From assembly GCA_041750915.1 (NCBI GenBank), contig JBGSYJ010000241.1:1067-65066 (forward strand): a stretch of 64,000 nucleotides of DNA, written 5' to 3'. Origin of the DNA: Thermoanaerobaculia bacterium. Lineage in GTDB: Bacteria; Acidobacteriota; Thermoanaerobaculia; Gp7-AA8. Within the stretch, counting starts at the first letter, position 1. The number at the start of each line of letters is the position of its first letter. A program made the translations under genes and the position numbers. This document shows positions 4,050-20,753 of the stretch, one piece after another. The notes beneath the pieces are model-generated. The model was not told the origin of the DNA. It did not search any database and worked only from the letters and a program-made list of their open reading frames with translations.

Positions 4050-6503
4050 ATGAACAAGAAAGACCTAACCGAACGCGACATCTGCACCAAGTACATCACT
4101 CCCGCCCTCGCAACCGCCGGCTGGGATGTGATGACGCAGGTACGCGAGCAGGTGCACTTCACGAAGGGCCGCATCATCGTGCGCGGTAAGCTCGTCACGC
4201 GTGCCAAATCCAGCTTTGCGGACTACATTCTTTATCACAAGCCGAATCTGCCCATCGCGATCATTGAGGCGAAGGACAACAGCTACCCTGTGGGCGGGGG
4301 CATGCAGCAGGGACTGCGCTACGCGGAGACGCTCGATATTCCTTTCGTTTTCTCCAGCAATGGAGACGGCTTCGTCTTTCATGACCGCACTGGGCTCTCT
4401 CAGAAGATCGAGACAGAGCTCCCGCTGGATCAGTTTCCGTCACCGCAGGAGCTCTGGGAGCGATACCGTCGCTGGAAGGGCTTCGCGCCATCTGAAGAAG
4501 AGACCGTTCTGCAGAAGTACTACGACGTTCCGGGCGGCAAAGAGCCCCGCTACTACCAGCGCGTTGCGATCAACAAGACCGTCGAGGCCATCGCTCGCGG
4601 GCAGAACCGCATCCTGCTCGTAATGGCAACGGGCACGGGCAAGACCTTCACTGCCTTCCAGACGATCTGGCGTCTCTGGAAGGCAGGAAAGAAAAGGCGA
4701 ATCCTCTTTCTCACAGACCGCAACATCCTCGCTGATCAGACGATGGTCAACGACTTCCGGCCCTTCGGAGGGGCGATGGCGAAGCTCAGCACCTCTTCGA
4801 AGACCATCGAGCGCGAAGACGGCACGAAGGTCGAACTCACGACCGCACTCGACAAGAATCGCCGCATCGACACATCGTATGAGATCTACCTCGCGCTGTA
4901 TCAGGCGATCACAGGACCTCTCGAGAGCCAGAAGCTCTATCGCGAGCTCTCGCGCGACTTCTTTGATCTCATCGTCATCGACGAGTGTCACCGCGGCAGC
5001 GCCGCAGAGGACTCCGCGTGGCGCGAGATCCTCGACTACTTTTCTGCCGCAACCCAGATCGGGCTGACCGCCACCCCGAAGGAAACCGAGTATGTCTCGA
5101 ACATCGAGTACTTCGGGGAGCCGCTCTACACCTATTCGCTGAAGCAGGGAATCCATGACGGCTTCCTCGCGCCCTACAAGGTCATCAAGGTTCATCTCGA
5201 TGTCGATGTCGAGGGCTATCGCCCCACGCCCGGCGAGAAGGACAAGTACGGCGAGGAGATCACCGACCAGATCTACAACCAGAAGGACTTCGACCGTACG
5301 TTCGTCATTGACGAGAGGACGAAGCGTGCTGCCCGGAAGGTCACAGAGTTTCTTAAACAGTCAGGCGATCCGTATCAGAAGACTATCGTCTTCTGTGTAG
5401 ATACCGAACACGCCGCGCGCATGCGACAGGCGCTGATCAACGAGAACGCCGCAGAGGTTATGAAGAATGAAAAATACGTCATGCGGATCACCGGCGACGA
5501 TCCCGTAGGGTCCGCCGAGGTGAGTAACTTCATCGATCCGGAATCGCGGTATCCGGTGATCGTCACAACTTCACGGCTCCTGTCGACCGGCGTCGACGCC
5601 CAGACCTGCCGGCTCATCGTGCTGGAGCGCGAGGTCGGATCCATGACCGAGTTCAAGCAGATCCTCGGGCGCGGCACACGCGTCCACGAAGATTCGAAAA
5701 AGTACTACTTCACGCTGATGGACTTCCGCAAAGCGACGAACCACTTCGCCGATCCCGACTTCGACGGCGAGCCTGTGCAGATCTACACGCCGGGCAAGAG
5801 CGATCCCATGACACCGCCGGACGTCGCTCCTTCTCCCGATGGAGAGCGCATCCCTCCGACACCAGGCGAGGATGAAACCGTCCTGATCACACCGGAGAGT
5901 CCCAACGTCGACATCCTCGACTCTCCCGACGCTGCTCGCAAGTACTACGTGGACGGCCGTCCCGTAAAGGTCATCGCGGAACGCGTTGAGTATCTCGACG
6001 AGAACGGGAAGCTGGTTACCGAGAGCCTGCGCGATTACTCGAAGAAGACCATCCGCAAGTGCTTCAGAAGCCTCGATGCGTTTCTCCGACGGTGGCGCTC
6101 CGATGAGCTGAAGGAAGCAATCATCACCGAGCTCGAGAGCGAAGGTTTGCTCCTCGAGCCGCTCGCCGAGGAAGTCGGGACGAACCTCGATCCATTCGAC
6201 CTGATCTGCCACGTCGCCTTCGACCAGCCGCCGCTCAGTCGCCGCGAGCGCGCAAGAAACGTAGAGAAGCGTGACATCTTCACAAAGTACGGTCCGCAGG
6301 CGCGCGCCGTCCTCGAGGCGCTCGTGCAAAAATACGAGGACGAGGGCATCATCGACATGCGCGACGCCCGCATTCTGAAGATCCCGCCGTTCGCCTCGAT
6401 GGGAACACCGCTGGAGCTGTTGAAAGAGTTTGGAGGGCTGCCCAATTACGAGGCGGCAGTCCGCGAGATTCAGTCCGCACTCTATGAAAAGGAAGTCTCC
6501 TGA
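4050..6503 (+). CDS. hsdR: Type I restriction enzyme R subunit (HsdR), SF2 helicase/endonuclease
   Basis: N-terminal MNKKDLTERDICTKYITPALATAGWD. Nuclease motif QQGLRYAETLDIPFVFSSNGDGFVFHD. Helicase motif I LVMATGTGKTFTAFQ. Motif II IDECHRGS. The start was moved to the internal Met at 4050. The stop abuts hsdM. Confidence 0.9.
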   Translation: MNKKDLTERDICTKYITPALATAGWDVMTQVREQVHFTKGRIIVRGKLVTRAKSSFADYILYHKPNLPIAIIEAKDNSYPVGGGMQQGLRYAETLDIPFVFSSNGDGFVFHDRTGLSQKIETELPLDQFPSPQELWERYRRWKGFAPSEEETVLQKYYDVPGGKEPRYYQRVAINKTVEAIARGQNRILLVMATGTGKTFTAFQTIWRLWKAGKKRRILFLTDRNILADQTMVNDFRPFGGAMAKLSTSSKTIEREDGTKVELTTALDKNRRIDTSYEIYLALYQAITGPLESQKLYRELSRDFFDLIVIDECHRGSAAEDSAWREILDYFSAATQIGLTATPKETEYVSNIEYFGEPLYTYSLKQGIHDGFLAPYKVIKVHLDVDVEGYRPTPGEKDKYGEEITDQIYNQKDFDRTFVIDERTKRAARKVTEFLKQSGDPYQKTIVFCVDTEHAARMRQALINENAAEVMKNEKYVMRITGDDPVGSAEVSNFIDPESRYPVIVTTSRLLSTGVDAQTCRLIVLEREVGSMTEFKQILGRGTRVHEDSKKYYFTLMDFRKATNHFADPDFDGEPVQIYTPGKSDPMTPPDVAPSPDGERIPPTPGEDETVLITPESPNVDILDSPDAARKYYVDGRPVKVIAERVEYLDENGKLVTESLRDYSKKTIRKCFRSLDAFLRRWRSDELKEAIITELESEGLLLEPLAEEVGTNLDPFDLICHVAFDQPPLSRRERARNVEKRDIFTKYGPQARAVLEALVQKYEDEGIIDMRDARILKIPPFASMGTPLELLKEFGGLPNYEAAVREIQSALYEKEVS

Positions 6504-6505
6504 CC

Positions 6506-7939
6506 ATGTCCGTTCGCGCCGCCGTCAAGTCGATTCAGGACATCATGCGGAAAGATTCAGGTGTCGACGGCGACGCCCAGCGCATCTCGCAGCTCTCCTG
6601 GATGTTCTTTCTCAAGATCATCGACGACCAGGACCAGGAGCTGGGGCTGATGCAGAAAGGCTACGACTCTCCCATTCCTCCGAGTCTCCAGTGGCGCGCC
6701 TGGGCCGCCGACCCGGAGGGAATGACCGGTGAGCAACTCCTCGGGTTTGTCAACGGCGAGCTCTTTCCCGCGTTGAAGGAGTTGACGGGCACCGACGGCC
6801 GTTCGCGCGTGGTCCGCAGCGTCTTCGAGGATGCGTACAACTACATGAAGTCCGGCCAGTTGATGCGCCAGATGATCAACAAGATCACGACCATCGACTT
6901 CAACAACCTCGCGGAGAAGCAGCACTTCGGCGAGATCTATGAGCAGATCCTCAACGACCTCCAGAGCGCCGGGAATGCCGGGGAGTACTACACGCCGCGG
7001 GCGGTCACGGCATTCATGGCCAATCGCATCGATCCGAGGCCGGGCGAGATCCTCTTCGATCCCGCGTGCGGCACCGGCGGCTTCCTCACCTGCGCCATCC
7101 GCCACATGCGCGAGCGCTACGTCAAGACAGCGAATGATGAGCACACGATGCAGAACGCGCTGCGGGCGACGGAGAAAAAGCAGCTCCCGCACATGCTCTG
7201 CGTGACGAACATGCTGCTTCACGGCATCGACGATCCATCGTTCGTCAAGCATGACAACACCCTGGCGCGCCCGTACACGAGCTACACGCAGGCCGACCGC
7301 GTGGACATCGTCCTCACCAATCCGCCGTTCGGAGGGAAGGAAGAGGATGGGATCGAGAGCAACTTCCCGAAACACTTCCAGACGCGAGAGACGGCGGACC
7401 TCTTCCTCGCGCTGATCGTGCGCCTGCTGAAGAGCGGAGGCCGCGCCGCAATGGTTCTTCCGGATGGAACGCTCTTCGGCGAGGGAGTAAAGACCCGGCT
7501 CAAGCAGCACCTGCTAGAGGAATGCAACCTACACACGATCGTCCGCCTGCCGAACAGCGTGTTCAAGCCATACGCCTCGATCGGCACGAATCTGCTCTTC
7601 TTCGAGAAAGGCACGCCGACGAGGGAGATCTGGTACTACGAGCATCGAGTGCCTGAAGGGCAGAAGGCGTACTCGATGACGAAGCCAATCCGTCTCGAGC
7701 ATCTCCAGCCATGCATCGACTGGTGGGACGCACGCGAGGAGAGCGAACTCGCCTGGAAGGTGACGATCGAAGAAATCAAGGGGCGCAACTACAACCTCGA
7801 CATCAAGAACCCGCACGAAGTCGAGGACGTCCACGGAGATCCGGAAGAGTTACTCGCGAGGCTCGAGGAGTCCGAGCAGCAAGCGGTGGCAATTCGAAGT
7901 GAGCTTAAAGCGATTCTCGAAGAGGCTTTGCGGCGATGA
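6506..7939 (+). CDS. hsdM: Type I R-M N6-adenine DNA methyltransferase subunit (HsdM)
   Basis: N-terminal HsdM_N-like region. AdoMet motif FDPACGTGGFL. Catalytic NPPFGG motif. There is a 4-nt overlap with hsdS. Confidence 0.9.
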   Translation: MSVRAAVKSIQDIMRKDSGVDGDAQRISQLSWMFFLKIIDDQDQELGLMQKGYDSPIPPSLQWRAWAADPEGMTGEQLLGFVNGELFPALKELTGTDGRSRVVRSVFEDAYNYMKSGQLMRQMINKITTIDFNNLAEKQHFGEIYEQILNDLQSAGNAGEYYTPRAVTAFMANRIDPRPGEILFDPACGTGGFLTCAIRHMRERYVKTANDEHTMQNALRATEKKQLPHMLCVTNMLLHGIDDPSFVKHDNTLARPYTSYTQADRVDIVLTNPPFGGKEEDGIESNFPKHFQTRETADLFLALIVRLLKSGGRAAMVLPDGTLFGEGVKTRLKQHLLEECNLHTIVRLPNSVFKPYASIGTNLLFFEKGTPTREIWYYEHRVPEGQKAYSMTKPIRLEHLQPCIDWWDAREESELAWKVTIEEIKGRNYNLDIKNPHEVEDVHGDPEELLARLEESEQQAVAIRSELKAILEEALRR

Positions 7940-8775
7940 ACGCTTCACAACTGCTTGAGCAATTTGATCGAATCAGCGAGGCCCCGGATGCGGTGCAGAG
8001 CATCAGAGCTTTTGTTTTGGATCTCGCGGTTCGCGGAAAGCTTGTAGGGCAGAGCAGCAGCGAAGAGCCCGCCTCTCAGCTCTTGAAACGCATTCGAAAA
8101 GAGCGTTTCACGCGCGTGCCACAATCACGACCAGTGACCCCGGTTGGCCGCGAGGAAATTCCATTCGAAGTGCCACCGAATTGGGAGTGGACGCGTTTAC
8201 TAGAGTTGCTCGTAAAGCTCACAGACGGTACACACCACTCGCCGCCGAATGGCCCCGAAGGTGCGTTCAGGTACATCACCGCAAAAAACATCAAGACTGA
8301 TGGAGTGCTGCTGGCAAATGTCTCGTATGTGACGGCAGAGGTTCATCGTGAGATCTATGCACGTTGCAATCCCGAGAAGGGAGATATCCTTTACATCAAA
8401 GACGGCGCGACGACGGGAGTGGCGACGATAAACGACCTCGATGAGCCGTTCAGTATGCTTTCGAGCGTCGCGCTTCTGAAGTTGACGTCGGGTGTTTACA
8501 ATCGCCTCCTGCTTTGCTTCTTGCGATCACCGTTTTTCTATTCGCAGATGCGGGAGCTAATGAAAGGAGCCGCGATAACGCGAGTCACCCTCAAACGTAT
8601 GTCGCCTGCGCTGGTTCCTTTGCCGCCGTTGGCCGAACAGCACCGAATCGTCGCCAGAGTGGATGAAGTAATGGCGCTCTGCGATCAGTTGGAATCGGCG
8701 CAGAGAAATAGAGCAACACTGCTTGCCAACCTTCTTGAATCGACTCTGCATCGTTTGTTGGCCGATTCTAGCTAG
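7936..8775 (+). CDS. hsdS: Type I R-M specificity subunit, half-size (single TRD flanked by conserved N- and C-terminal helices)
   Basis: 279 aa. N-terminal conserved region LDLAVRGKLV, one target-recognition domain, and C-terminal conserved helix LPPLAEQHRIVARVDEVMALCDQLE. Typical HsdS proteins are ~400-450 aa with two TRDs. Confidence 0.75.
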   Translation: MNASQLLEQFDRISEAPDAVQSIRAFVLDLAVRGKLVGQSSSEEPASQLLKRIRKERFTRVPQSRPVTPVGREEIPFEVPPNWEWTRLLELLVKLTDGTHHSPPNGPEGAFRYITAKNIKTDGVLLANVSYVTAEVHREIYARCNPEKGDILYIKDGATTGVATINDLDEPFSMLSSVALLKLTSGVYNRLLLCFLRSPFFYSQMRELMKGAAITRVTLKRMSPALVPLPPLAEQHRIVARVDEVMALCDQLESAQRNRATLLANLLESTLHRLLADSS

Positions 8776-8909
8776 CTAAGCCGGTGAGCTTCCGCTCCAG
8801 TTCTGGCTAACGGACTATGGAGCATCGGCGGTCCTTCTTGATGATTGGGCTTTGGACTGAGACAGAGTCACCAAGATAGTTCCGTCTTCTTAGAACTCAA
8901 TCCGAAGAC

Positions 8910-9731
8910 TTATTCCCGCACAACAGGGAAAATAGGTGCAGCGTCGCTGCGCACAGCAAATCTGACAAGAAGGCGTCGATCCGCAAGTTCGAGCACTATG
9001 CGCTGAATGTCCCGCTTGTCGTGCAGCAGAGCCGGTACCACACTATCGAGCAGATGGAGCCCTTCTTCGAGGAAGTGTTCGATGTCTTCGTCGGTAGGAT
9101 TTGTAATCACTAAATCGATCTCGAGATATTCGTCGCTATTTCTCAAGAAAGCCTTGAAAAGAAAGAGAACCTCGCGCTGGGGCTCGTTCTCCTTCTTCCT
9201 ACGAAGAAGCTGCTTCACTTGTTCTTTCAATGCGCCGTAAGCATCTGAACCGATCTGACCAAAAAACCCGCTGGCAATCGCTCCCGCGAGGAAAGTACCC
9301 CCTAGTGTGAGAATAGTGAGCGGCTCGAGCGCCTTCTTCACTTCCGGTTGCGGCTCGCACCCAAGCGTCGCTTCGATCTTCCGCAAGGTCGTCTGACTTT
9401 GCTCATCACAAAATCCGCGATCGAAAGCGGCGAAAAGCCTTTCGTGACCCGGCTTCCCTAGGGGCATCCTGCGATCACATATAAACGGGACAGGGTCGCC
9501 GTGTGCCCAACACTCAATCTCGGCCTCGACGGCCAACTCTCCGTCGTCAATTTGCTTCACTTCACCCTTCAACACACGGCCTACGGGAGGCAACCTCGGA
9601 TCGTGCTGGACCCAAACGGGCAGCAGTATCCGACTAAGATCGTCAGCCATGAGTCGCAGGCCTTCAGGGGAAATCGACTCGTTATGCGCATCGACGTGAG
9701 TCGTCGCCATGATGATTCTCTGTTTTCTCAT
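8910..9731 (-). CDS. Hypothetical protein with one predicted TM segment (ILTLGGTFLAGAIASGFFGQI)
   Basis: 273-aa ORF convergent with hsdS. No recognisable motif. Confidence 0.4.
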   Translation of the reverse strand: MRKQRIIMATTHVDAHNESISPEGLRLMADDLSRILLPVWVQHDPRLPPVGRVLKGEVKQIDDGELAVEAEIECWAHGDPVPFICDRRMPLGKPGHERLFAAFDRGFCDEQSQTTLRKIEATLGCEPQPEVKKALEPLTILTLGGTFLAGAIASGFFGQIGSDAYGALKEQVKQLLRRKKENEPQREVLFLFKAFLRNSDEYLEIDLVITNPTDEDIEHFLEEGLHLLDSVVPALLHDKRDIQRIVLELADRRLLVRFAVRSDAAPIFPVVRE

Positions 9732-9912
9732 CGCTGATCTCTTGGCTCAACCATTCCATCAACTCTCTCAGGGCTAAGTCCAGAAGGCACTGTTATATTT
9801 CTTGCATCATCTCAAAACAATCCGAGAGCGCTTACCTTGTCGGCCGGCGCCCCCGCTCTATTCGTATCAAGATCGTTGCACTCCAGATCAGACGGAGACA
9901 TGGTAGACAGCG

Positions 9913-10755
9913 ATGACAGAACTCGCTTGTGATCACAGCGCGCTCACCGAGATTTTCGAACTGAGGCCCGCCGACCGCGAAGCCGTCGTAGCCGGCCTTC
10001 GCCTTATGGGACGCTTCCGACTCACAACGGTCAATGTCCTCGAGGCGTATGGGCATGGACGCGCACGAATTCGCAAAGAAAAACTCGCCTTCTACAGGAA
10101 TCTTACAGGTGATCTCAACCCTATCGATGCGCCGAACGATCTCTTGCGAAAAAGCGGCATCGCCTACCATGAAGGCAGGAATGAGATCGAAGTCGGCAGC
10201 GCCGAGGCAAGGGCATTGCTTTACGAAACGAAGCTTCCCGAGGACCTCTACCACGAGTCATTCGCCTGGAACAAAGAGCGAAAAGCAGAATTCAAAAAGA
10301 TGCATCAGGAGCTACGACAGGTCTATCAGAAGCATTTCGAGAGCGTCCCCGCCGATCGCGCCAAGACAGTGGGAGACCTCACTAGATACTTTTGCGAGCG
10401 AGTCGACACATATCTCGAATTCCTGATCATTCCATTCTACGAAAGAGCCACGAATCTGACGATCACAAGGGAGAGAGCCTTAGACTTTACGAATAGGAGC
10501 ATGCCTTGGAGGCTCTTTTGGGTCAGCCGGATTCATGCTCTCTTTACTCGAAGCATTCAAGAACAGGGAAGCAGTGATCGGAAAAACGCCGGACAAGTAG
10601 ACCTCGAGTCCGCGATCTATCTTAGCTTGACACACATCTTCGTCACCGCCGACAAGGCGCAGTACGATGCCTTCATCGACATTAACGAATTCAATCCCAC
10701 AAACGCGAGAATTTACTGGTGGCCGGACATCAGGAAAGGCTTCCTAGGTATTTAG
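9913..10755 (+). CDS. Hypothetical protein (280 aa)
   Basis: ORF divergent from the previous gene and convergent with the RT gene. No recognisable motif. Confidence 0.4.
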   Translation: MTELACDHSALTEIFELRPADREAVVAGLRLMGRFRLTTVNVLEAYGHGRARIRKEKLAFYRNLTGDLNPIDAPNDLLRKSGIAYHEGRNEIEVGSAEARALLYETKLPEDLYHESFAWNKERKAEFKKMHQELRQVYQKHFESVPADRAKTVGDLTRYFCERVDTYLEFLIIPFYERATNLTITRERALDFTNRSMPWRLFWVSRIHALFTRSIQEQGSSDRKNAGQVDLESAIYLSLTHIFVTADKAQYDAFIDINEFNPTNARIYWWPDIRKGFLGI

Positions 10756-11004
10756 GCAACAGTCAATGCCGCAACTATTCAAGGGGGTTCTTCGATCGCA
10801 CCTCACAAGTCGGGGCGATAGACTTCGCGACCTTCATATCCGGCAGTGCCATCCTGGGCATACGCACGAAGACTGCCCCTCGGTGGGCGGGTGAAGAGGC
10901 GCGAGTTGACATTGTCCAGCGACGGATGCCGCAGCCCAAAGGGGTAACCCAGTGAGTGCTTCTCGCTTCCTCGTTGCGAAAGCGGCGAGGCCTCTCTACC
11001 CCAC

Positions 11005-12054
11005 TTACCCCAGCGTCCTTTGATCATCAGGTCGCACGACCCGTCGAGATGGTAACCGCTGCTCAGGTTGCCGGTAACGATGTCGGCTCATTCGGTGGCA
11101 CTTTCGACTCTCGCCGCGGGTGGCGCGCGTTCCATGAACCGTAGCAGTGGGCAGCACTGCCGACGCCAGGCATCGAAGCGAAGCACCTTGGGCGCGATTC
11201 ACGCTCGTGACATAGCTGATCTTCCCGTTCAGCGACGCGATTTCGTAATCAAACACGGCATTCTGGCGATTTGCAAGTTCGAGTATGGAGTCGCGGATCG
11301 TGCATATCAGTTCGCGTCCAGCGGAGATTTTGCGATTGACGATGATCCCGGTCAGCTTCTGCTGCTCGCCAGCCGTCATAACGGTTACTTTTGCCGCGCG
11401 TACAGAGTGTCCCATTCTTTTCAGAGCGGCGACAGTCGGTTCGATTGCTTCCCGGGCATGTTGTCCCGAGAATGCAATGTCATCAACGTACATCGTCCAG
11501 TCAAGACCGTAGACGGAGGCGATCTTGGCGATCTCCCGATGGAGAGGAAGCAACACAAGATTCGCGAGCACGGAACTGGTCGGCGCGCCCTGGGGCAGAC
11601 GATGTTGAAATGTCGTGAGCTTCGTCATCAGATCCGCAATCTCACCTGAATACAACAAGGTGTTCCGAAAGACGTCATAGATCGCGCGGTCGTTGATGTT
11701 TGGGAAACAGCTCTTTATGTCAATCGTGACGAGCGTGGGTGCATCCACGTGCACCGCAGCATTGTCCCGTGTCGAACGCCCCTTGATTCCGCCGAGGACT
11801 TGTTCGTCGAAAGGGAGTGTTTGAAGGATCGCGTGATAAATGCGTGACTGGAGGCTTTTGAGTGCGTCAGTGGGGTTATCGATGTGGCGCCATTTGTCGC
11901 GTTCGTGGCGCCGACGATCGAAGGGTTTGTAGTACGAGCCAGCCCGTGCCGCCACTCGGCGAATGTCGGAGCGGTTCCAGTGAAGCAGGCTTTCAAGGCG
12001 TCGCATCGACACCATTGGCTCGAATTGGAAAGCCTTCGTCCGGACAAACTTCAC
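11005..12054 (-). CDS. Reverse transcriptase, retron-like clade
   Basis: NAxxH-like RDNAAVHV before motif 1. IDIKSCFPNI (motifs 1-2). LPQGAPTSSVLANLVL (motif 4, retron-type QGxPTS). YVDDIAFSG (motif 5, YxDD). QKLTGIIVN (motif 7, VTG-like). ~350 aa, with no X/maturase or endonuclease domain and no DGR TR/VR repeats nearby. Confidence 0.75.
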   Translation of the reverse strand: MKFVRTKAFQFEPMVSMRRLESLLHWNRSDIRRVAARAGSYYKPFDRRRHERDKWRHIDNPTDALKSLQSRIYHAILQTLPFDEQVLGGIKGRSTRDNAAVHVDAPTLVTIDIKSCFPNINDRAIYDVFRNTLLYSGEIADLMTKLTTFQHRLPQGAPTSSVLANLVLLPLHREIAKIASVYGLDWTMYVDDIAFSGQHAREAIEPTVAALKRMGHSVRAAKVTVMTAGEQQKLTGIIVNRKISAGRELICTIRDSILELANRQNAVFDYEIASLNGKISYVTSVNRAQGASLRCLASAVLPTATVHGTRATRGESRKCHRMSRHRYRQPEQRLPSRRVVRPDDQRTLG

Positions 12055-12347
12055 TTTGCCGCCGAGTTCTCTTCGAGGATGACTGCGAGCAATTGGCTTC
12101 CGAGCTTTCCGGCTTCGGCTTCGGAAATGCCGTGCAGATCACGCCTTTCCGAGGCGAGAAGCGTGATGAGGTAGATCGGAACCATGAGTGCCTTCGCGAG
12201 AGCTTGTAGTGAAGCAGCGCTCGGTACTCGACGGTTCGCCTCAAGGAGCGAGATGTAACTCGCGTTCAGCTTGGAGCGACGCGCCAGCTCTTTCTGGTCG
12301 AGGTTCTTCGCGGCTCGGATAGTTCTTATCGCTTTACCGTAGTTCAT
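12051..12347 (-). CDS. XRE-family HTH DNA-binding protein, translationally coupled to the RT
   Basis: LDQKELARRSKLNASYISLLEANRRVPSAASLQALAKAL is a Cro/CI-type HTH. Its stop overlaps the RT start. Confidence 0.7.
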   Translation of the reverse strand: MNYGKAIRTIRAAKNLDQKELARRSKLNASYISLLEANRRVPSAASLQALAKALMVPIYLITLLASERRDLHGISEAEAGKLGSQLLAVILEENSAAK

Positions 12348-12424
12348 TCAGCCTTCCCGTGAAGCTGATCAGAGCCTCCGAACATTCGGAAGCTCAAAAC
12401 AGTCAACAGTTCGTTCGAAGCCAA

Positions 12425-12661
12425 TCACTCGCCGCTTACAACGAACGCCAGACACAACTCTCGTGCAAGGTCGTTCCACGCTTTTCGCGTCTTCCGTCGA
12501 TCGCCCACCGCTACCGCGTGGTCGACTTTCTGGAAGAGCGTTTCGAGCCTCTCCATTCGCTTCGGTTCCAATCCTCCGCGGCGGGTGATCTCCCGAAGAG
12601 AGGAGAGCATCGCCTTTGACGTCTTCTTGCTCTTCATAAAACCTCCATTTGGTTGTTTCAC
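12425..12661 (-). CDS. Small basic hypothetical protein (78 aa) upstream of the HTH-RT pair
   Basis: ORF on the same strand as the HTH and RT genes. Lys/Arg-rich. The region could alternatively be non-coding RNA. Confidence 0.25.
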   Translation of the reverse strand: MKQPNGGFMKSKKTSKAMLSSLREITRRGGLEPKRMERLETLFQKVDHAVAVGDRRKTRKAWNDLARELCLAFVVSGE

Positions 12662-13400
12662 CTGATCGCTCCGCGGCGTAATGCCGGCGGCACACAGGTC
12701 TCCCTATTGCTGTGTGGGCTTTCAGGGGCGGAGGTGGAACCGAACTGTTCTGTTCGCTGACTGGTGTCTCCCTCTTCAACGCAGCAGCTTTCACTGTCAC
12801 GACATGAAAGGGATAGACGAGACAACTGTCGTGGCATGCAGCGCGAACGCTGATGCCCACGATGGGCAGGACTCGGATGAATCCTGCGGCAACCCGAAAG
12901 TTGCCCTCAGTAGCCGGCCGTTAGGCCGACCGTGGCAACGGGCTGCAATGCAGCGCGCGCCATTACCCGACACATTCTGGGAGATGAAGAGCTTCAAAGA
13001 ACGCTACCGCGTCGCGCGGCCAAGAGAATTATCATCATCAGTTGATTAAATGTCAAGTGAGATGACTATGAGTAATGTCGCCAAGCTTGGTATTCCGGTT
13101 CCCATCGAGGGAAAGATTTGACGCAACCAGACTCTAAGTCCTGTAGAAAGTTGGGGCCTACAGAGGCCCTCGGCGACACACCGGCCGGCGCCTGGACCCT
13201 AGACTTTGAGGCTCAGTCTGGATGATCTGCGCGGGACTTCATGGGGAGTTCCAAGGCGACTCGTCAAAGATTCGCAGCGGTCCCTGTGCAGTGGTATACC
13301 GGAAGAGGATGTAAGGAACTCCGACATAAGAATGTGGTCTGAGTAGGTCGAGAGCTGGAGTGTGCAAACAGCGATCTTCCCGGATTTCGGTAGGGGGACG
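12662..13400. ncRNA. Highly structured intergenic region (multiple hairpins, 10-bp direct repeat atgcagcgcg at 12835 and 12948); candidate location for an RT-associated ncRNA (msr/msd-like) and a divergent promoter
   Basis: Hairpins read directly: cacacagg..ctgtgtg (12691-12716), cacgaca..tgtcgtg (12797-12830), ggcaac-ccgaaa-gttgcc (12888-12906), ctgtag..ctacag (13141-13163). Confidence 0.25.
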
Positions 13401-13405
13401 ACACC

Positions 13406-15355
13406 ATGGCTTCTAGAGGAGGACGGAAAGTAGGGGCTCCATCTGCAAGGCTTCCGAATAGACCTCGACAACATCAGCTCGAAACCGAGTCACGAAACGC
13501 GTTTCGTAGTGCTATACCCTCTGTGTGGGTGTTTCGAGACCTCGATCAGGATTATGGGATAGACGGCGAGGTCGAGATCTTTGAAGACTCTGGTGAAACA
13601 ACTGGTCTCAAGTTTCTCGTTCAGCTCAAGGCGACCGATCAAATTCTATCTCGTGCTCTTCGCCTTAGAGTGCGCGACTCAGCTGCCGGTTACTATTGGT
13701 CGCTGCAGCTTCCCGTTCTGATCGTTCGTTTCCACGCACCAAGTGAACGAATTTACTTTCGTTGGTTTCATTCGCTCGATCGGTACTACGGCAAAAAGTC
13801 GAAAGACGGGATGAGTTTCAAGCTGACAGATGCCGACGCGTGGGATTTACAGGCTCCTCCCAGAATTCGACGCGTAGTCAACGAATATCTCTCGGTAAAA
13901 TCCTCCCGTCTTCAGTTGCCGTTGATGATTTCCGTGTCAGTCGATGACGCCGGTATTCTAGGTATCCCGGCGCCCGGGATCATTTCGTTTTTGCAACGCC
14001 TCGCTTCAACGGTACGAGAGGTAATACGCTTCAGATGGGACGAGGAAGGCTCGAACTCCCTGATCCTTTCTAAGGAATCCCTCAGGGTCCGACTCGCGGG
14101 TGCCGATGTCTTCACGCTCCACTGGAACAATCAGAAACTGGGGCATTCCAAAGAGTCTCTTGCAAAGGATTCGTTGCTCGCCATTGCACTCTCTCTCGAC
14201 TTTTACGGCCATAGCACGTACGCGGCAACCCTGATCGCAAAGTTCGCTCACGGCTCCATTTTCGTGAGACAACTCGATATGGCCGTTGCCCTCGCCTCAG
14301 TCCTCGGAAGAGCTGGTCACACCTCATCGGCGCTCGAGATCGCTGCAGTTCTGTTCAAAGACGACCAAACGGTCGCGTCCGCACAGGCATTCACCCTGAC
14401 GTTTGTCGTCAATCAACGTGATCTCTCAGACTCGCAACTGAGTCACGGCATCCAGTTTATGCAGTTCCACGCGCAGTGCTTAGAGGATCGGGGTGTGCTG
14501 CGCGATGCAGCTGTTCTTCGCTATAACTGCGGTAGCACTCTTCGAGTCGCGAGTCGGTACCGTGAAGCCATTCGTGAATACCGCGCCGCCGCGAGGCTTG
14601 AGCCTCAGTACCTGCAGAGAAGCTATTTCTGGCGCGAGCTGGCTGGGATGTTGTTCTTGAACAGGCGATTTAATAGAGCAGTATGGGCTTACGAAAAAGC
14701 GCTTGGGCTAGAAGATGAACCGCTAGTTCGGTGTCTGCGGGCGGATGCGCAAATGTTTGCGGGTAAGTACGCGATCGCACTGCAAGCGTTCGAAGAGTGG
14801 GGCCCCCAATGTGACTCACCCGCAGATCTTGAATGGAGATTAAAAGCGATTGCCTTGAAAACGTTGATAGGGGTAGTGGGGCTTTCAGAGCAGCGCAGAT
14901 TCCCCTTGGCGGCTCAGGAAGAGTTCCAAGACAATGACACGTGCGAAGAGGCACTCGCCGATCTCGCCGGAGACGCGTTGTCGGCAAGCGCCTGGGAGCA
15001 TCTGGGTACATGCCGTGTAGATCGGCCAACTGAGGCCGGTCTGAGCCTACTCATCGTCGGACTAATCCACCCTCAACATATCCCGGCGCTAATCTCAGCA
15101 AGCTCACTCTTGAGGGACGTGAATATGGATTTGTCTTGTGAAATACTCTCATTTGCACTTCTGAAAAACCGCGAAGAAGTGAGCGACTTTCTGATTGCGC
15201 TTGGCATCACAACTGAAGAGGGGTCTGCTGATCTAAGTCGAAAGCTGGCAGAGATCATAAGAGTACTACCGGCCTTAGATGACAAGGATGTGCTTCGTTT
15301 TCACCATGATGATTTGTCATTCGATGAGATTGTGAGATATCTCGAGAAAGATTGA
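13406..15355 (+). CDS. DUF4365-like N-terminal (restriction-endonuclease-fold) domain protein with C-terminal TPR-like repeats
   Basis: N-terminal GIDGEVEIFEDSGETTGLKFLVQLKAT matches the DUF4365 pattern. The C-terminal half has TPR-like helical repeats (AIREYRAAARLEPQY..., AVWAYEKALGLEDEP). Confidence 0.45.
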   Translation: MASRGGRKVGAPSARLPNRPRQHQLETESRNAFRSAIPSVWVFRDLDQDYGIDGEVEIFEDSGETTGLKFLVQLKATDQILSRALRLRVRDSAAGYYWSLQLPVLIVRFHAPSERIYFRWFHSLDRYYGKKSKDGMSFKLTDADAWDLQAPPRIRRVVNEYLSVKSSRLQLPLMISVSVDDAGILGIPAPGIISFLQRLASTVREVIRFRWDEEGSNSLILSKESLRVRLAGADVFTLHWNNQKLGHSKESLAKDSLLAIALSLDFYGHSTYAATLIAKFAHGSIFVRQLDMAVALASVLGRAGHTSSALEIAAVLFKDDQTVASAQAFTLTFVVNQRDLSDSQLSHGIQFMQFHAQCLEDRGVLRDAAVLRYNCGSTLRVASRYREAIREYRAAARLEPQYLQRSYFWRELAGMLFLNRRFNRAVWAYEKALGLEDEPLVRCLRADAQMFAGKYAIALQAFEEWGPQCDSPADLEWRLKAIALKTLIGVVGLSEQRRFPLAAQEEFQDNDTCEEALADLAGDALSASAWEHLGTCRVDRPTEAGLSLLIVGLIHPQHIPALISASSLLRDVNMDLSCEILSFALLKNREEVSDFLIALGITTEEGSADLSRKLAEIIRVLPALDDKDVLRFHHDDLSFDEIVRYLEKD

Positions 15356-15410
15356 GAGTAGAGACAACTCTCGACATTAGACTGCTCGCAGGCAAGATTC
15401 CAAGGAACAG

Positions 15411-16226
15411 TTGCCAACAACAATGATTGATTATTCCGAGCCTGGGGCGGTTCTCTGGGCCGTTGATGATTCGGAGCTGACGATCGAAGGGAAGGCCCAC
15501 ACGCTTCTCGGCGCTGTTAGCTTCAGTCACCCGTGGCCGGTGTGCAACGGGATGGCCGAATTGCGGAACCACCTGAACCTTCCGGACGATTTTGAGTTCA
15601 AATGGAACAGCCGAATTGCGAGACCTGCAGACCGAGAGAAAGTGAGCGAGATGTTTCTCCGCATTCTGGCTCGCTCCGTCGGGGTAGTGACTGTCGTTGA
15701 AGGCCGTGACCATCAGAAAGGAGCTGAATTGCTGGCGCAGCAGATCGCCGATTTTCAGCAGCCAAGGACTGCGTCCCTGGCATTAATGGACAACGGGATC
15801 GTCAAGAAGCCGTTCGAGTTTCGTCGATTTCTTAATCAGTCCACAGACGACAACCTTCGCTACTTTCAGTTTGCGAGCGTCGACTCGTCACTCAACGACC
15901 TGATCCAATGTGCAGATATTTTTGCGGGCTTCCTCGCACTCAAAATCAAACTCGCGCTCAACATTGTGAAAGACCGCACGATCACCGACGATGAAGGGGA
16001 GCTATCCCTCTCTTCAGTGATTGAATTCTCTCTACGATACGTCATCTGGGGGGCTCGTAACGAGGTCGCGTTTGATTGGGATAATCAGACCGAGTCGCCT
16101 CCACCCGAGTTTTGGATTAAATATGCGAAGGGTTTCGGCCTGAGAATTCACTCTTCCGTCTCGGAGCACGTGCTCGAAAGGGTTTACTCGCAGGCAGGAA
16201 CCTTCTACATGGGCTGCTTGCATTAG
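15411..16226 (+). CDS. DUF3800-like protein
   Basis: 271 aa. The N-terminal acidic motif WAVDDSE and the C-terminal LIQCADIFAGF (QxxD) resemble the two DUF3800 signature motifs. Confidence 0.4.
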   Translation: MPTTMIDYSEPGAVLWAVDDSELTIEGKAHTLLGAVSFSHPWPVCNGMAELRNHLNLPDDFEFKWNSRIARPADREKVSEMFLRILARSVGVVTVVEGRDHQKGAELLAQQIADFQQPRTASLALMDNGIVKKPFEFRRFLNQSTDDNLRYFQFASVDSSLNDLIQCADIFAGFLALKIKLALNIVKDRTITDDEGELSLSSVIEFSLRYVIWGARNEVAFDWDNQTESPPPEFWIKYAKGFGLRIHSSVSEHVLERVYSQAGTFYMGCLH

Positions 16227-16347: not shown

Positions 16348-17310
16348 ATGGCAAAACGAGACTTCGTTGCCGAAATTCTCCAACGTCGCGGTAGGTCGAA
16401 ACATAGCTTTGCGGTAGGCAACCTGTTCCGCCGAATGCTTCGACTGGAGATCGCTTTCGATCAGTCAGGCACGATTGATCCCGAAATGATGCGTTATTTT
16501 CCGATAGCGATCGTGGCTTGTATGGAGAGCTTCTTTCGTGCCACGATCAGCGAGTTGATCGACGCGGGCGAGCCGTACACTAACCGACTCGACGAGTTCG
16601 AAAATATGAAGGTGGAGCCCTCGGTGATCAGGGCGATCCACGGGCAGAGGATCACTGCAGGAGAATTTGTCAGCCACCTGGTTCCGATAAACTCGCTGGA
16701 AGATATAGATCGTTCGATCTCGGTTCTAGTAAACGATGACTTCATAAAACGCGTGAAGACTGTTCGGGACCGCTGGGCGATCGAGGTCGAGGGTCAGTTG
16801 GATGCGCCGATTATTGTGGATCCGGGGAAGATAATCGCGGGAGTGAAAGAGGCGTTTCGGATTCGGCACATTCTTGCCCATGAGTTTTCGAATGACGAGA
16901 CGTTGTTCGACCGGACAATGATCGAAGAATCCTTTCGATGTTCGACGACATTCCTGCGCGCAGCGTCTGCGGTCATAAACGAGATTCGCTTTCCCGGCTC
17001 ACCACTCACGCAACTTGCGATGAACGAAAAATCCGCCGATGACTTTGCAACCGCTGATGCTGCGCTAAACGACGCCGTATCAGCACTGAATGAGCTGCTT
17101 GAGAGTGAAGAGCAAAAACTTTTGGCTACAGGGCAGTCAGCGTGGGAAATCACTCGGAACACCACCGCTACCATTGGCGCCAATCTACAAGGGAAGGGAG
17201 GCACAATCTGGCCAGTGCTCTACTATAGTCTCGCTCGAAGTCTCACCGCTACTCGGATGGAAGAGATTCGACACGTGATCGGCATCCATGAGTCGATGCG
17301 GCAGAACTGA
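16348..17310 (+). CDS. Two-domain hypothetical: N-terminal region with a possible HEPN-like Rx6H motif (RIRHILAH), C-terminal DUF1311 (LprI-like) domain
   Basis: The C-terminal segment ADAALNDAVSALNELL...QSAWEITRN...GGTIWPV...LTATRMEEI follows the DUF1311 pattern (ADxxLNxxY, QxAWxxxR, GGS/T). The N-terminal HEPN call is weak. Confidence 0.4.
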   Translation: MAKRDFVAEILQRRGRSKHSFAVGNLFRRMLRLEIAFDQSGTIDPEMMRYFPIAIVACMESFFRATISELIDAGEPYTNRLDEFENMKVEPSVIRAIHGQRITAGEFVSHLVPINSLEDIDRSISVLVNDDFIKRVKTVRDRWAIEVEGQLDAPIIVDPGKIIAGVKEAFRIRHILAHEFSNDETLFDRTMIEESFRCSTTFLRAASAVINEIRFPGSPLTQLAMNEKSADDFATADAALNDAVSALNELLESEEQKLLATGQSAWEITRNTTATIGANLQGKGGTIWPVLYYSLARSLTATRMEEIRHVIGIHESMRQN

Positions 17311-18014: not shown

Positions 18015-19760
18015 CTAATCGAAAGCTATCCCGAGCAGACGGCCAGATGGCTCCAGGTCAGTTAGGCGAGTCGGGATCCGCCCTTCCAGGAAGTCCCCGC
18101 CGAGGAGCGCGGTCGGGAATTCGTCAGAGTTCATTGCGCACAGGTACTGAAATCCAAATCTCGCCGATTTGGCGGCCGCCAGCTCGAGCGCGAGCGCCTT
18201 CTGCCTCTCATCAACACCCTCAAAGATGGTGCTGTCGTGAATGAGCATGCCCGGCGCCTGGCTGTGGTCGGACCACAGTTCAGCGAGCATCAAATCGAAG
18301 CAGAACATGGCCATGTTCTCGACGCCGGCAGCATCCTTCCGGGGCATTTGCCAGCCGAAGAAGAAGCCATTGCTTCGGCTCTCGATGATGAATGACCCCG
18401 CCTGGCCGTAAAGATATTGGGTGTTCTCGAAAAAAATGCCGAGGATCTTCTCCCTTTGCAGGCGCAATTCAGAGAGGCTGAGTCGTGTCAGCTGTTGGAG
18501 GCGTGCTTCATCGACCTTCAGTGCGTCACGGCCCTCCGTGAACTTACGAATGTTCTCAAGCCGCTGCTCGACGTCCTTTAGCTGCGTGACTGTAGCGACA
18601 TGAAGCTGCTGCAGCTTCATGTACTCGTCCAGGGCGCCGTGGCTCTGCAACACTGTGAGGAGTTCCGCGCGCTCATCGCTCAGCCGCCGAATCTCCGCAG
18701 TACGCTCCGCGACTGACGCCTTCAAGCGCGCCATTTCGGTTGACAGAAACGCCCGTCGATCCTCGATGACACCTCGGTGGAAGTCTCGGACCTCATCGAA
18801 GCGCTTCAGGACGACGTCTGGAAGTTCGACGGACGCTGCCTCGTAGGCGCGTCGAATTTCCGTTTCACCGGGGTCCACTTCGATTTTCAGACTCTCCGCG
18901 TAATTCTGCAGGAGCCTCGTCTCGGTGAAGTTCGTGTCCGTGAGCTTCTGCAATGAGGCGGTGATGACGTTCGCTCGCCGCTCGATGTCTTCATACTGAG
19001 GATGAACCTTGAACGACTTGAGCCCAGATTCTTCGTCGCGAAGTCGCATCTGGAGTTTCACCCGGTCTGCCTCAAGTTGACCCTCTGATCCGAGTACGTT
19101 GTTGAGAAGCCCTGCGCCAGCCGCTTTTCTCAACTTTTGCAGGAGGGCTTCCTGCTCTTTGTGGAGCTTCCACTCGACTGCGGTCTGCCACGAGAGGCCA
19201 AGAAGGAATGCGATGTTGATGCGTGACTCGTACGATCCCTGCTTTCTATGCGTCTCAAACGGGCTTGCATACGCGTCTTTACCGACACGCACGAAGTAAG
19301 GGAACAGATTCCGAAAGGTCGGCTGATGAGCGACCGGATCGTCTACCGACAGCCCGAACATTAGCTGCCCGAGGACCCGCACCCATTCGTCGATCTTCAG
19401 AAAAGGGCCGTGCAAGAGGGTGTCCGCATGCGGTCGAATCGGAAACCACGAGGTGTCACCCGCAAAAATGACTTTGGCTGGCTCCGAGGTCGCGCGCGTG
19501 ACCGAGAACGTCCGTCCGCGGAGAACGACATCGAGTGTGAACTCCCAGCCTTCCAGCGCAAACTTCAGCAATCCCTTGTCCTTTGTCGTACTCGCGCCGA
19601 GGCAAAAGTGAATGATCTGGAGCAAGGTCGTCTTGCCCAAGCCATTGCGCGAGTCCTTTTCGGTGGACCTTTCGGTCCGATCCGCTAGGAGGACGTTGAA
19701 ATCTCCGCGAAGGGCGACCGTCCGGAATCCCGCGTTATTCGCCCTGATCTTGGCGATCAC
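18015..19760 (-). CDS. ABC/SMC-like ATPase with long coiled coil (Lamassu LmuB / ABC-3C ATPase-like)
   Basis: N-terminal Walker A NGLGKTTLLQII. ~300-aa coiled-coil middle rich in E/R/L heptads. C-terminal Walker B/D-loop region MLIHDSTIFEGVD. Its start overlaps the upstream small ORF. Confidence 0.6.
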   Translation of the reverse strand: MIAKIRANNAGFRTVALRGDFNVLLADRTERSTEKDSRNGLGKTTLLQIIHFCLGASTTKDKGLLKFALEGWEFTLDVVLRGRTFSVTRATSEPAKVIFAGDTSWFPIRPHADTLLHGPFLKIDEWVRVLGQLMFGLSVDDPVAHQPTFRNLFPYFVRVGKDAYASPFETHRKQGSYESRINIAFLLGLSWQTAVEWKLHKEQEALLQKLRKAAGAGLLNNVLGSEGQLEADRVKLQMRLRDEESGLKSFKVHPQYEDIERRANVITASLQKLTDTNFTETRLLQNYAESLKIEVDPGETEIRRAYEAASVELPDVVLKRFDEVRDFHRGVIEDRRAFLSTEMARLKASVAERTAEIRRLSDERAELLTVLQSHGALDEYMKLQQLHVATVTQLKDVEQRLENIRKFTEGRDALKVDEARLQQLTRLSLSELRLQREKILGIFFENTQYLYGQAGSFIIESRSNGFFFGWQMPRKDAAGVENMAMFCFDLMLAELWSDHSQAPGMLIHDSTIFEGVDERQKALALELAAAKSARFGFQYLCAMNSDEFPTALLGGDFLEGRIPTRLTDLEPSGRLLGIAFD

Positions 19761-19986
19761 GTGCCGAGGCCCTCTGAAGCTTCCCGTTCAACAACTCGAC
19801 GGCACCAACGGCGAAGAGAAAACTGACCGCCACCGTGAACCGGTTGAAGTTCTCTAGTTCGTGAATTTTTCGCGCGCTCTCCCAGAGCGATGAGACCGTT
19901 CGGGGCTGAGAAAGCTGCTTCAAGATCAGCGCTCCCATCCCAACAACAGATCGACGCGGCGTAATGTGCTTGTCGGGCAGAATCAC
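19735..19986 (-). CDS. Small middle-component-like protein (83 aa) between the effector and the ATPase
   Basis: Start overlaps the stop of the HNH gene (ATGA at 19983-19986). The end overlaps the ATPase start. Confidence 0.45.
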   Translation of the reverse strand: MILPDKHITPRRSVVGMGALILKQLSQPRTVSSLWESARKIHELENFNRFTVAVSFLFAVGAVELLNGKLQRASARDRQDQGE

Positions 19987-20753
19987 GGCTCGAAGACCTC
20001 ACACAGTTCAAACAAGTAGGAAAGAACCGCCTGGCCGGCTGCACGCCGAGAGCTGCCCGCCAATACTCCACCCGACGCGATCACCGAGAGTCGTTCGAAC
20101 AGATCGTCACCCTTCACTCCATCGTGCAGGAGTGCGTAATAGTGCTTACGGAAACCAAATTTCAGCCGGTCGGGGAAGGTCGAATCATTCGAGGTCTCCG
20201 CCGACACATAGTCCCGGACCCTTGAAGCGATGGAGATTCCATTCGTGAGTGCGAGCCGTGTGATACCTGAGAGCTCGTTCTTCAACATCTTCGCGTCGAT
20301 CTCGGTCCGTGTCAGCGTTCCTGGTGCCTGCTCGACCGCGGGATCGGCAACGAAACGCTCGCAGACGGCATCGAGTTCCGCGAAGGTCACGTCGGCTGTC
20401 GCCAAGTTTCGGACCGCCGCGATCTTTTCCTCCATCGCGCGCTTCATCACCCTCAGCGAATCAACGGGATGGGACTTGGGTGCCTTGTCTACTTGGGTGT
20501 GGTGATTTGGGCACAGCAGAATCAGATTCTCAGGTGCGTTCTTCTTCGCGATGGGGATCTTGGCGCCCTTCACGCCCCGCGGGCCCTCATCCGCGAGAGG
20601 GTAGACGTGCGCAGTCTCGTAAAGGTGAATGTCGCCGTCGGCGGGCGTCGGTTGGTCGAGGATCTTGTTGCACCCACCGAAGTTGCATATCCCTGCCGAA
20701 CGCGCGATCACGATCAGCTTTATCTTGGTTGGAACCTCGGCTTGTCTTGTCAT
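19983..20753 (-). CDS. HNH endonuclease-domain protein with C-terminal helical domain (candidate effector of the ABC ATPase system)
   Basis: GICNFGGCNK...AHVYPLADEGPRG...NLILLCPNHHTQVD has the CxxC...H...N...CPNHH HNH zinc-finger nuclease signature. It is the first gene of a three-gene overlapping operon. Confidence 0.65.
   Translation of the reverse strand: MTRQAEVPTKIKLIVIARSAGICNFGGCNKILDQPTPADGDIHLYETAHVYPLADEGPRGVKGAKIPIAKKNAPENLILLCPNHHTQVDKAPKSHPVDSLRVMKRAMEEKIAAVRNLATADVTFAELDAVCERFVADPAVEQAPGTLTRTEIDAKMLKNELSGITRLALTNGISIASRVRDYVSAETSNDSTFPDRLKFGFRKHYYALLHDGVKGDDLFERLSVIASGGVLAGSSRRAAGQAVLSYLFELCEVFEP

Follow-up and report, generated by a model that had tools for sequence, protein, structure and literature searches.

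The 64,000-nucleotide stretch analysed here (the window; positions 1,067 to 65,066 of contig JBGSYJ010000241.1 in the Thermoanaerobaculia assembly GCA_041750915.1) carries three co-oriented genes on its minus strand between 11005 and 13056. They encode a reverse transcriptase (RT), a helix-turn-helix (HTH) protein and a small protein (SP), the last in a short open reading frame (ORF) inside a predicted structured transcript, the hybrid RNA (hyRNA). We are highly confident that the locus is an intact Type VI retron, comprising a promoter, a hyRNA with the SP gene, the HTH gene and the RT gene. In the direction of transcription the parts are:

13028-13056, minus strand: sigma-70-like promoter, TTGACA-N17-GATAAT, matching 11 of the 12 consensus positions, with a predicted transcription start near 13021.

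12369-13021, minus strand: predicted hyRNA, made up of a structured leader, the SP coding sequence and a 3′ hairpin; backed by fold z-score and covariation, with its ends inferred.

12425-12637, minus strand: SP gene, 70 amino acids, encoding a candidate toxin with three predicted helices, described from its homologues and an AlphaFold2 model; Shine-Dalgarno (SD) sequence GGAGG at 12642-12646.

12051-12347, minus strand: HTH gene, 98 amino acids, Cro/C1 type (PADLOC HTH_VI and Pfam HTH_3).

11005-12054, minus strand: retron RT gene, 349 amino acids (PADLOC RT_VI, YVDD catalytic motif).

The original prediction had described a retron-type RT coupled to a Cro/CI-type HTH gene. All of the motifs quoted for it (RDNAAVH, LPQGAPTSSVLANL, YVDDIAFSG and KLTGIIVN) are present in the 349-residue ORF, whose catalytic YVDD is intact and whose C-terminus runs ∼ 60 residues beyond RT motif 7; Pfam RVT_1 matches it with an E-value of 1.5e-16. 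The RT was scored against profile hidden Markov models (HMMs), as had been proposed. RT_VI was the best of the 62 PADLOC RT models (8.6e-66, 220 bits, 274 of 279 profile positions), followed by RT_II-A (180 bits), and the top 25 PADLOC matches were all retron models. The best NCBIfam match was retron_St85 (158 bits); across both collections retron models gave 114-220 bits. The RT is assigned to Type VI at this HMM level, from the PADLOC profile scores. For the HTH protein, the top PADLOC match was HTH_VI (3.8e-19, 67 bits, 88 of 92 positions), ahead of capH (2.7e-10), and Pfam HTH_3 matched at 2.6e-11. The TGA stop codon of the HTH gene and the GTG start codon of the RT gene overlap by 4 bp within GTGA, confirming the overlap noted earlier.

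Type VI retrons are defined by a clade-3 RT and a Cro/C1 HTH protein of 91-110 residues, and some members of the family also have a small accessory protein of three helices (Mestre et al., 2020, PMC7736814). The present locus agrees with this definition (PMC7736814) in its 98-residue HTH protein, encoded by a gene overlapping that of the RT, and its 70-residue three-helix SP; the named Type VI accessory clusters (cl2075, cl2760, cl3272 and cl3897) are slightly longer, at 75-79 residues. The earlier idea of a defence module built from a retron-type RT and a Cro/CI HTH protein, with a non-coding RNA (ncRNA) upstream, is supported by RT_VI, HTH_VI and the covarying RNA described below. It was right in its core, and did not recognize that the locus falls into the already defined Type VI (PMC7736814).

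The small ORF had been listed as 78 codons long (12425-12661). It is better read as a 70-codon gene starting at the ATG at 12637, which has GGAGG (12646-12642) five bases ahead of it. Homologues of the RT numbered 317 at E <= 1e-10, and every close relative recovered through the RT has a small ORF ahead of the HTH and RT genes next to different flanking genes; the SP-HTH-RT order is kept among relatives despite these different genomic flanks. SP homologues of exactly 70 residues share 77-80% identity. When ∼ 170 RT-containing loci were scanned, ∼ 85 had an ORF of 60-75 codons, preceded by an SD sequence, directly ahead of the HTH gene, and 40 diverse members of the family align essentially gap-free with the pattern ..L..L...G.LEPEQ....A...L.HAL...D....KA...LAR.FL. 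Searching 1.84 billion representatives with the SP profile returned 282 clusters (50% identity), nearly all of them full-length and 59-76 residues long. Two members reached by the SP profile alone again have HTH and RT genes downstream; one of these loci adjoins a type I restriction-modification (R-M) gene, the other a GmrSD gene. The AlphaFold2 model of SP (pLDDT 84.6) has helices at residues 2-19, 25-44 and 47-69. SP gave no match in Pfam, PADLOC or NCBIfam, and a Foldseek search of the model against the PDB returned generic helical bundles only (E > 0.4).

Small protein-HTH-RT operons are also found on Psychrobacter plasmid pA22P5 and Pseudomonas plasmid pBYT1-1, where the RT carries no annotation beyond 'reverse transcriptase family protein'. 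Both operons are likely to be Type VI retrons of other subclades. We do not claim homology between their small proteins and SP (hhalign E ∼ 0.01, probability <5%).

A consensus scan of 10800-13500 found a single promoter-like site, TTGACA-17-GATAAT. Similarity to the three closest relatives begins abruptly at its TTGACA (13056-13051), upstream of which the sequences are unrelated, and this hexamer is invariant in 12 of 12 alignable loci. The hyRNA is accordingly predicted, from sequence features, to be ∼ 650 nt long, running from 13021 to ∼ 12369 with the SP gene inside. At the DNA level its leader (from ∼ 13021 up to the SP start) shows higher conservation than the SP coding sequence, and a sequence profile finds the leader in another eight loci, where the RTs have only 48-55% identity. 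The 384-nt leader (12638-13021) folds with z = -3.45, none of 100 shuffles being as stable, and the 677-nt transcript stretch to the HTH start has a minimum free energy (MFE) of -299 kcal/mol (z = -7.05). The ncRNA had been sought in a hairpin-packed region at 12662-13400. That proposal holds for the conserved and structured 12638-13021; the distal part, 13057-13405, is not conserved in relatives and gives z = +0.61, with 72 of 100 shuffles folding as well. Since the distal half is neither conserved nor structured, the supposed 0.7 kb of structure consists of the 384-nt leader and an unrelated spacer. In the other direction, structured RNA extends past 12662 and through the SP gene to ∼ 12369. 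Rfam gave no real match and no retron RNA family, either at permissive thresholds in 9000-15000 or at gathering thresholds in the whole window.

RNAalifold, applied to an alignment of homologous RNAs from 12 loci, predicted 97 pairs, and compensatory changes affect 41 of these; curation gave 99 pairs distributed over 15 helices. In the curated set 92.1% of cells are paired, compared with 35-45% when the partners are slid by 1-3 columns. Both sides have changed in 47 of the 99 pairs; the slid controls gave 10-20 such pairs and shuffling gave 24 ± 3, none of the 500 shuffles reaching 47. Covariation backs the 15 hyRNA helices, and the elements of the RNA, from 5′ to 3′, are:

13006-13020, minus strand: P1, 5′ stem-loop of 5-6 bp with a 3-nt loop; all five pairs covary among 27 loci.

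12994-13002, minus strand: near-invariant single-stranded motif GUUCUUUGA, after P1, conserved in 26 of 27 diverged loci.

12980-12992, minus strand: 5′ element, GCUCUUCAU-CUCC, complementary to the SP start region and SD sequence.

12866-12962, minus strand: hairpins P2-P5 of the conserved 5′ domain, supported by covariance model R1 and by covariation in 27 sequences.

12907-12911, minus strand: ACUGA, nearly invariant and single-stranded, between P3 and P4.

12829-12862, minus strand: hairpin P6, of variable length and sequence but predicted in each of the 12 homologues.

12756-12826, minus strand: hairpin P7, of variable length and sequence but predicted in each of the 12 homologues.

12766-12772, minus strand: repeat copy A, GGGAGAC, located at the base of P7 on its 3′ side; copies A and B change together.

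12742-12749, minus strand: IR1, 5′ arm of a long-range inverted repeat, 100% paired with IR2.

12691-12716, minus strand: hairpin P8, predicted riboregulator, 95% paired, with repeat copy B in its loop.

12698-12704, minus strand: repeat copy B, GGGAGAC, in the P8 loop; changes in concert with copy A.

12669-12690, minus strand: hairpin P9, predicted riboregulator, 94% paired, seven covarying pairs.

12405-12412, minus strand: IR2, 3′ arm, 13 nt after the SP stop codon; pairs with IR1.

12369-12398, minus strand: hairpin P10, between IR2 and the HTH ribosome site; 12 pairs, eight compensatory, 91.5% of cells paired.

Covariance model R1, which describes the 5′ domain (P1-P5), was found in 15 loci outside its training set, on the correct strand in each case and 240-460 nt ahead of the SP start; the hosts include Planctomycetia, Nitrospirota, Fibrobacterota and Woesebacteria metagenome-assembled genomes. 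The resulting 27-sequence alignment of the 5′ domain, which is fitted to R1, has 94.4% of cells paired (slid controls 33-45%) and compensatory changes in 39 of 42 pairs. R1 gave nothing convincing in the pA22P5 and pBYT1-1 loci (best 9.8 bits). As a guess, the GUUCUUUGA motif is a contact for the RT or the HTH protein, or a priming region. A small hairpin that RNAalifold placed in the 5′ motif (UGA/UCA) was set aside; its bases are invariant, and pairing with the start codon is better supported. The consensus scan flagged P1 and the following U-rich stretch as terminator-like. At the other end, P10, after which no U-tract was found, presumably marks the 3′ end of the hyRNA or contributes to its stability.

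Two long-range pairings involve the SP gene or its start. IR1 and IR2 are paired in 100% of cells with four covarying pairs in the 12 loci, and enclose the SP gene. Their variants are ACAGUUCG/CGAACUGU, ACGGUCCG/CGGACCGU, ACGGUUCG/CGAACCGU and CAGUAGU/ACUACUG; distant loci have wholly different sequences in the same places with complementarity kept. In place of IR1-IR2 a local hairpin (CGAAC/GUUCG) was considered and rejected: the second group does not conserve it, while covariation supports the long-range pairing. Beside IR1, GGUUCC and CUCCG pair with GGAACC and CGGAG within the SP coding sequence, which is therefore part of the fold. The neighbouring CCUCC (12733-12729) was considered as an anti-SD element and rejected, the consensus pairing it with a GGAGG inside the SP coding sequence; pairing with the SP SD sequence is possible as an alternative.

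The second pairing is formed by the 5′ element, the reverse complement both of AUGAAGAGC at the SP start and of the GGAG in the SP SD sequence. This helix (columns 70-77 with 501-508) has 95.8% of cells paired and three covarying pairs, one of which goes with a codon change from Lys to Arg. The duplex of a locus's own 5′ element and start is stronger than all 26 cross-locus duplexes in 9 of 27 loci; distant examples among the nine, with unrelated sequences, are UUCGCGCAU/AUGCGCGAA and AUCUUGUUCAU/AUGAACAAGAU. When transcripts are cut after SP codon 5, the pairing appears in the MFE structure of 11 of 12 homologues, and in partition-function folds the bases of the SP SD sequence are mostly paired in 12 of 12. 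A search of the minus strand for a1/a2 repeats bracketing a long msd stem had been suggested. Structured RNA was indeed found there; in place of a canonical a1/a2 pair around a single msd stem it has these two long-range pairings, either of which may play the a1/a2 role. An invariant CUG (12400-12398, minus strand) lies 5 nt after IR2 in 12 of 12 aligned loci. It is pure speculation that its G is the priming nucleotide, should IR2 act as a1.

Between P5 and IR1 the alignment is variable, yet two hairpins are predicted in 12 of 12 homologues. From this combination of variable sequence with conserved shape, and from the position of copy A, we infer that P7, perhaps with P6, is the best candidate for the msd, the reverse-transcription template. 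Both copies of the 7-nt repeat change together across lineages (GGGAGAC, GGGACAC, GCGACAC, GGGGCAC, GCGGAGAC and others). The longest repeat shared by the two regions falls at homologous positions in 16 of 26 loci (18 including two found by direct search), and these repeats have 16 different core sequences. Concerted change is what selection for complementarity between a cDNA and the P8 loop predicts, and this sequence pattern is the main evidence added by the present analysis. A 10-nt direct repeat had been pointed out in the upstream region. Exact copies do exist at 12836-12845 and 12948-12957 (CGCGCUGCAU, RNA strand), and another pair lies at 12574-12583 and 12669-12678 (CGCCGCGGAG, RNA strand); the relevant repeat is instead the 7-nt GGGAGAC pair. 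Neither 10-nt repeat looks conserved in relatives when the alignment is inspected by eye, and both are probably due to chance. The 12574-12583/12669-12678 repeat could give the CCUCCGC element two alternative partners.

No ncRNA was recognized for Type VI in 2020 (PMC7736814). Two recent preprints both describe a structured RNA upstream of the SP gene and inverted repeats flanking it (10.1101/2025.10.22.683967; 10.64898/2026.04.27.721009). In Retron-Vpa2 from Vibrio parahaemolyticus, SP is the toxin; RT, HTH protein and hyRNA join in one complex, and the HTH protein represses reverse transcription (Zhang et al., 10.1101/2025.10.22.683967). Multicopy single-stranded DNA (msDNA) accumulating on infection is needed for SP translation, and the cDNA of the first 7-nt repeat is proposed to hybridize with the second and to free the SP start (10.1101/2025.10.22.683967). 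In Retron-Sen3 from Salmonella, single-stranded DNA (ssDNA) and SP are made constitutively, the HTH protein is a protein antitoxin and the trigger is inhibition of RecBCD (Garcia-Rodriguez et al., 10.64898/2026.04.27.721009). The effector at the present locus had been called unclear, with the HTH protein, the 78-codon ORF and a neighbouring gene as candidates. For Type VI, published experiments identify the small ORF as the toxin and the HTH protein as its restraint (10.1101/2025.10.22.683967; 10.64898/2026.04.27.721009). SP occupies the same place as this toxin in the operon and, by analogy with Vpa2 and Sen3, is probably a toxin here as well.

The present locus resembles Vpa2 in its operon order (structured RNA with SP, HTH, RT), in inverted repeats that link the sequence following SP with the base of the first arm, in the placing of the SP SD sequence and AUG within predicted structure, in the 7-nt repeat pair divided between the template hairpin and the loop of the riboregulator, and in a small helical SP with a hydrophobic C-terminal helix. 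It differs in the predicted length of its hyRNA (∼ 650 compared with ∼ 470 nt), in the size of SP (70 compared with 55 residues) and in its catalytic motif (YVDD compared with YADD). The repeats vary in concert here, whereas those of Vpa2 are described as sequence-conserved; the RNAs were compared by description only. With Sen3 and its cluster cl2075 the locus shares the SP-HTH-RT order, a conserved 5-bp 5′ stem-loop (P1 here) just ahead of a 5′ pairing element, pairing of the SP ribosome site with the 5′ region (the 'ncRNA conformation') with an alternative IR1-IR2 pairing that flanks SP, a variable central segment, and an SP coding sequence that takes part in the fold. Here the leader is longer (384 compared with ∼ 280 nt), SP belongs to another family (hhalign E ∼ 0.01 against proteobacterial Type VI small proteins), IR1-IR2 is clearly compensatory, which in cl2075 is statistically not significant, and the host lineage is environmental, probably Acidobacteriota-like, rather than within the Enterobacterales. 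The canonical retrons Ec86 (Eco1), Eco6 and Sen1 likewise have a retron-clade RT, a structured RNA beside the RT gene and long-range inverted repeats. In contrast to these, the RNA described here carries a protein-coding gene, that of the candidate toxin, matches no Rfam retron family and has two long-range pairings as candidates for the a1/a2 role. In the Type VI retrons studied so far the msDNA is an activator or a bystander, not the antitoxin.

The best overall explanation, to which we assign a probability of roughly 0.6, is a Type VI retron working by a mechanism like that proposed for Vpa2. The model joins parts whose identity, conservation and RNA pairings are described above with biochemical steps taken by analogy. 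A constitutive promoter would give the ∼ 650-nt hyRNA, and read-through would give the translationally coupled HTH protein and RT. The 5′ domain (P1-P5) is probably a handle for the RT and the HTH protein, the variable hairpins P6 and P7 are probably the reverse-transcription template, and P8 and P9 would form the riboregulator. IR1 and IR2 would clamp the SP gene into the RNA fold. Translation of SP would be blocked by pairing of its SD sequence and AUG with the 5′ element (12992-12980) or locally, and the HTH protein would also restrain reverse transcription, the SP protein or both. On infection, single-stranded cDNA copied from P7 would accumulate; the triggers in studied relatives are phage recombination proteins or inhibition of RecBCD. 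The 5′ part of this cDNA would carry GTCTCCC, the complement of copy A, and would hybridize with copy B in the P8 loop. The hybrid would open up the riboregulator and make the start site of SP accessible, and the three-helix SP toxin would then halt growth (abortive infection).

That the translational switch itself operates here as in Vpa2 is somewhat better than an even bet, and several points weigh against it. The transcript, the msDNA and the toxicity of SP are all predictions, and analogy underlies the assignment of the msd template, the priming nucleotide and the ends of the transcript. SP is only marginally similar to the proteobacterial Type VI small proteins (the two plasmid loci, hhalign E ∼ 0.01). 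The assignment of the RT at the HMM level does not indicate whether it is nearer to that of Vpa2 or that of Sen3. The 5′ element pairing and IR1/IR2 cross topologically, so that they must be alternatives or form a pseudoknot; the crossing pairings match the two conformations proposed for Sen3. The RNA features alone cannot decide the mode, because Sen3 has a sequestered ribosome site yet makes SP and ssDNA constitutively.

A mode of action like that of Sen3 is the foremost alternative, and we consider it rather unlikely. In such a retron ssDNA and SP would be constitutive, the HTH protein would be a protein antitoxin binding SP (and the RT), inhibition of RecBCD by a phage would release SP, and the RNA would organize the complex instead of gating translation. 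The architecture is identical, down to the shared 5′ stem-loop, the IR1/IR2 repeats flanking SP and the SP coding sequence within the structure. At 70 residues SP is nearer in size to that of Sen3 (79) than to that of Vpa2 (55), and its C-terminal helix is long (residues 47-69); in Sen3 this element is proposed to contact the HTH protein, and SP is made there although sequestration of the ribosome site is predicted as well. However, 7-nt repeats that change in concert are hard to explain without a need for pairing, which points to a nucleic-acid switch, and pairing of the SD sequence and AUG with the 5′ element in a locus-specific manner indicates selection on translational control. The Vpa2-like and Sen3-like modes are compatible, and the HTH protein may have an added role as antitoxin at the protein level.

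Two further readings depart from this frame. In one, SP is not the effector, the HTH protein is a transcriptional autoregulator, and the effector is a neighbour, either the DUF4365-TPR protein or one of the ORFs at 8910-10755. The toxicity of SP in this family is presumed by analogy, SP is without a Pfam, PADLOC, NCBIfam or significant structural match, and the DUF4365-TPR gene is directly upstream on the other strand. We nevertheless regard this reading as very improbable, because the neighbours differ in every relative: the flanks change wholly while SP, HTH and RT stay together. The length and sequence pattern of SP are conserved in ∼ 85 loci, homologues found through the SP profile alone again adjoin HTH and RT genes, and SP is a proven toxin in two Type VI retrons. 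In the other reading, the RT belongs to a group II intron, a diversity-generating retroelement (DGR), an Abi system or a defence-associated RT (DRT), and the upstream structure is unrelated to it. The RVT_1 core is common to all prokaryotic RTs, and weak group II, Drt3a and Drt2 matches do occur. These matches reach only 25-31 bits, below cutoffs of 200-390 (TIGR04416 for group II, 30.8 bits, cutoff 300; Drt3a, 30 bits, cutoff 200; Drt2, 25 bits, cutoff 390), compared with 114-220 bits for the retron models. The earlier observation that the RT is free of an X/maturase or endonuclease domain and of a template/variable repeat (TR/VR) pair was borne out: neither domain was found in the RT, no TR/VR-like repeat of at least 25 nt exceeded 73% identity in 8800-15400 (two 26-nt matches at 73% were the only ones), and Rfam gave no group II intron match in the window. 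As the retron scores are far higher, the others fall below cutoff and no TR/VR repeat is present, and with the type-specific partner HTH_VI alongside, we reject the group II, DGR and DRT/Abi readings, which we find scarcely credible.

Beyond the mechanism at this one locus, we put forward tentatively, at slightly less than even odds, that this uncultured clade carries a distinct and longer hyRNA family (∼ 650 nt), in which the reverse-transcribed DNA acts in trans as an 'anti-antisense' that switches on the toxin gene. The RNA is absent from Rfam, and the 5′ domain was undetected in the two proteobacterial Type VI loci. If the proposal is correct, the comparative record, with repeats that co-evolve and a 5′ element that co-evolves with the toxin start and first codons, would supply the evolutionary proof that a cDNA-triggered riboregulator has so far lacked. 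The rule of the switch could then be read from sequence and generalized over hundreds of Type VI loci.

The kind of system is already known, and the copy described here is from a new, uncultured lineage. Relatives come from soil and groundwater lineages of Acidobacteriota, Planctomycetota, Nitrospirota and candidate-phyla bacteria, and the Type VI design, a toxin gene inside a retron RNA guarded by the HTH protein and RT, reaches well beyond the Proteobacteria. The related loci provide evidence at the sequence level for two proposed control elements, the pairing of the 5′ element with the toxin start and the repeats that are kept identical. Although the locus will not surprise a retron specialist, it offers a useful comparative set for the model of a cDNA-triggered riboregulator. 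Standard annotation pipelines would miss both the 70-codon gene, which is 'hypothetical', and the ∼ 650-nt RNA, neither of which has a Pfam or Rfam family.

The retron sits in a defence island, in line with its earlier placing between a type I R-M system and other defence-like genes. The R-M system (3915-8775) includes an HsdR that scores 1144 bits against the EcoAI family. Its specificity subunit (7936-8775, plus strand, 279 residues) matches one half of the HsdS model and may be a half-size S subunit. Two ORFs between the R-M system and the retron (8910-9731, minus strand, 273 residues; 9913-10755, plus strand, 280 residues) gave no match in Pfam, PADLOC or NCBIfam and may be uncharacterized cargo of the island. 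On the far side lies a 649-residue protein with a restriction-endonuclease-like DUF4365 domain and TPR repeats (13406-15355, plus strand), divergent from the retron; it has a weak PADLOC Aga_REase match (8.5e-08) and is not conserved beside related retrons. It is followed by a 271-residue protein (15411-16226, plus strand) with a weak match to DUF3800 (E = 0.0015), a domain linked to Type VII retrons, and by a 320-residue protein (16348-17310, plus strand) with a C-terminal LprI domain.

No tRNA genes were found in the window. A complete ABC-3C three-component system occupies 18015-20753 on the minus strand, with a DUF2326 ATPase (PADLOC PDC-M68B, 4.9e-178), a Middle Component 6 protein (19735-19986) and an HNH-CTD10 effector (19983-20753). 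The defence genes are followed downstream by an IS-type integrase (rve; 22967-23701, plus strand) and large RHS-repeat proteins (26104-33605, minus strand), consistent with a variable genomic island.

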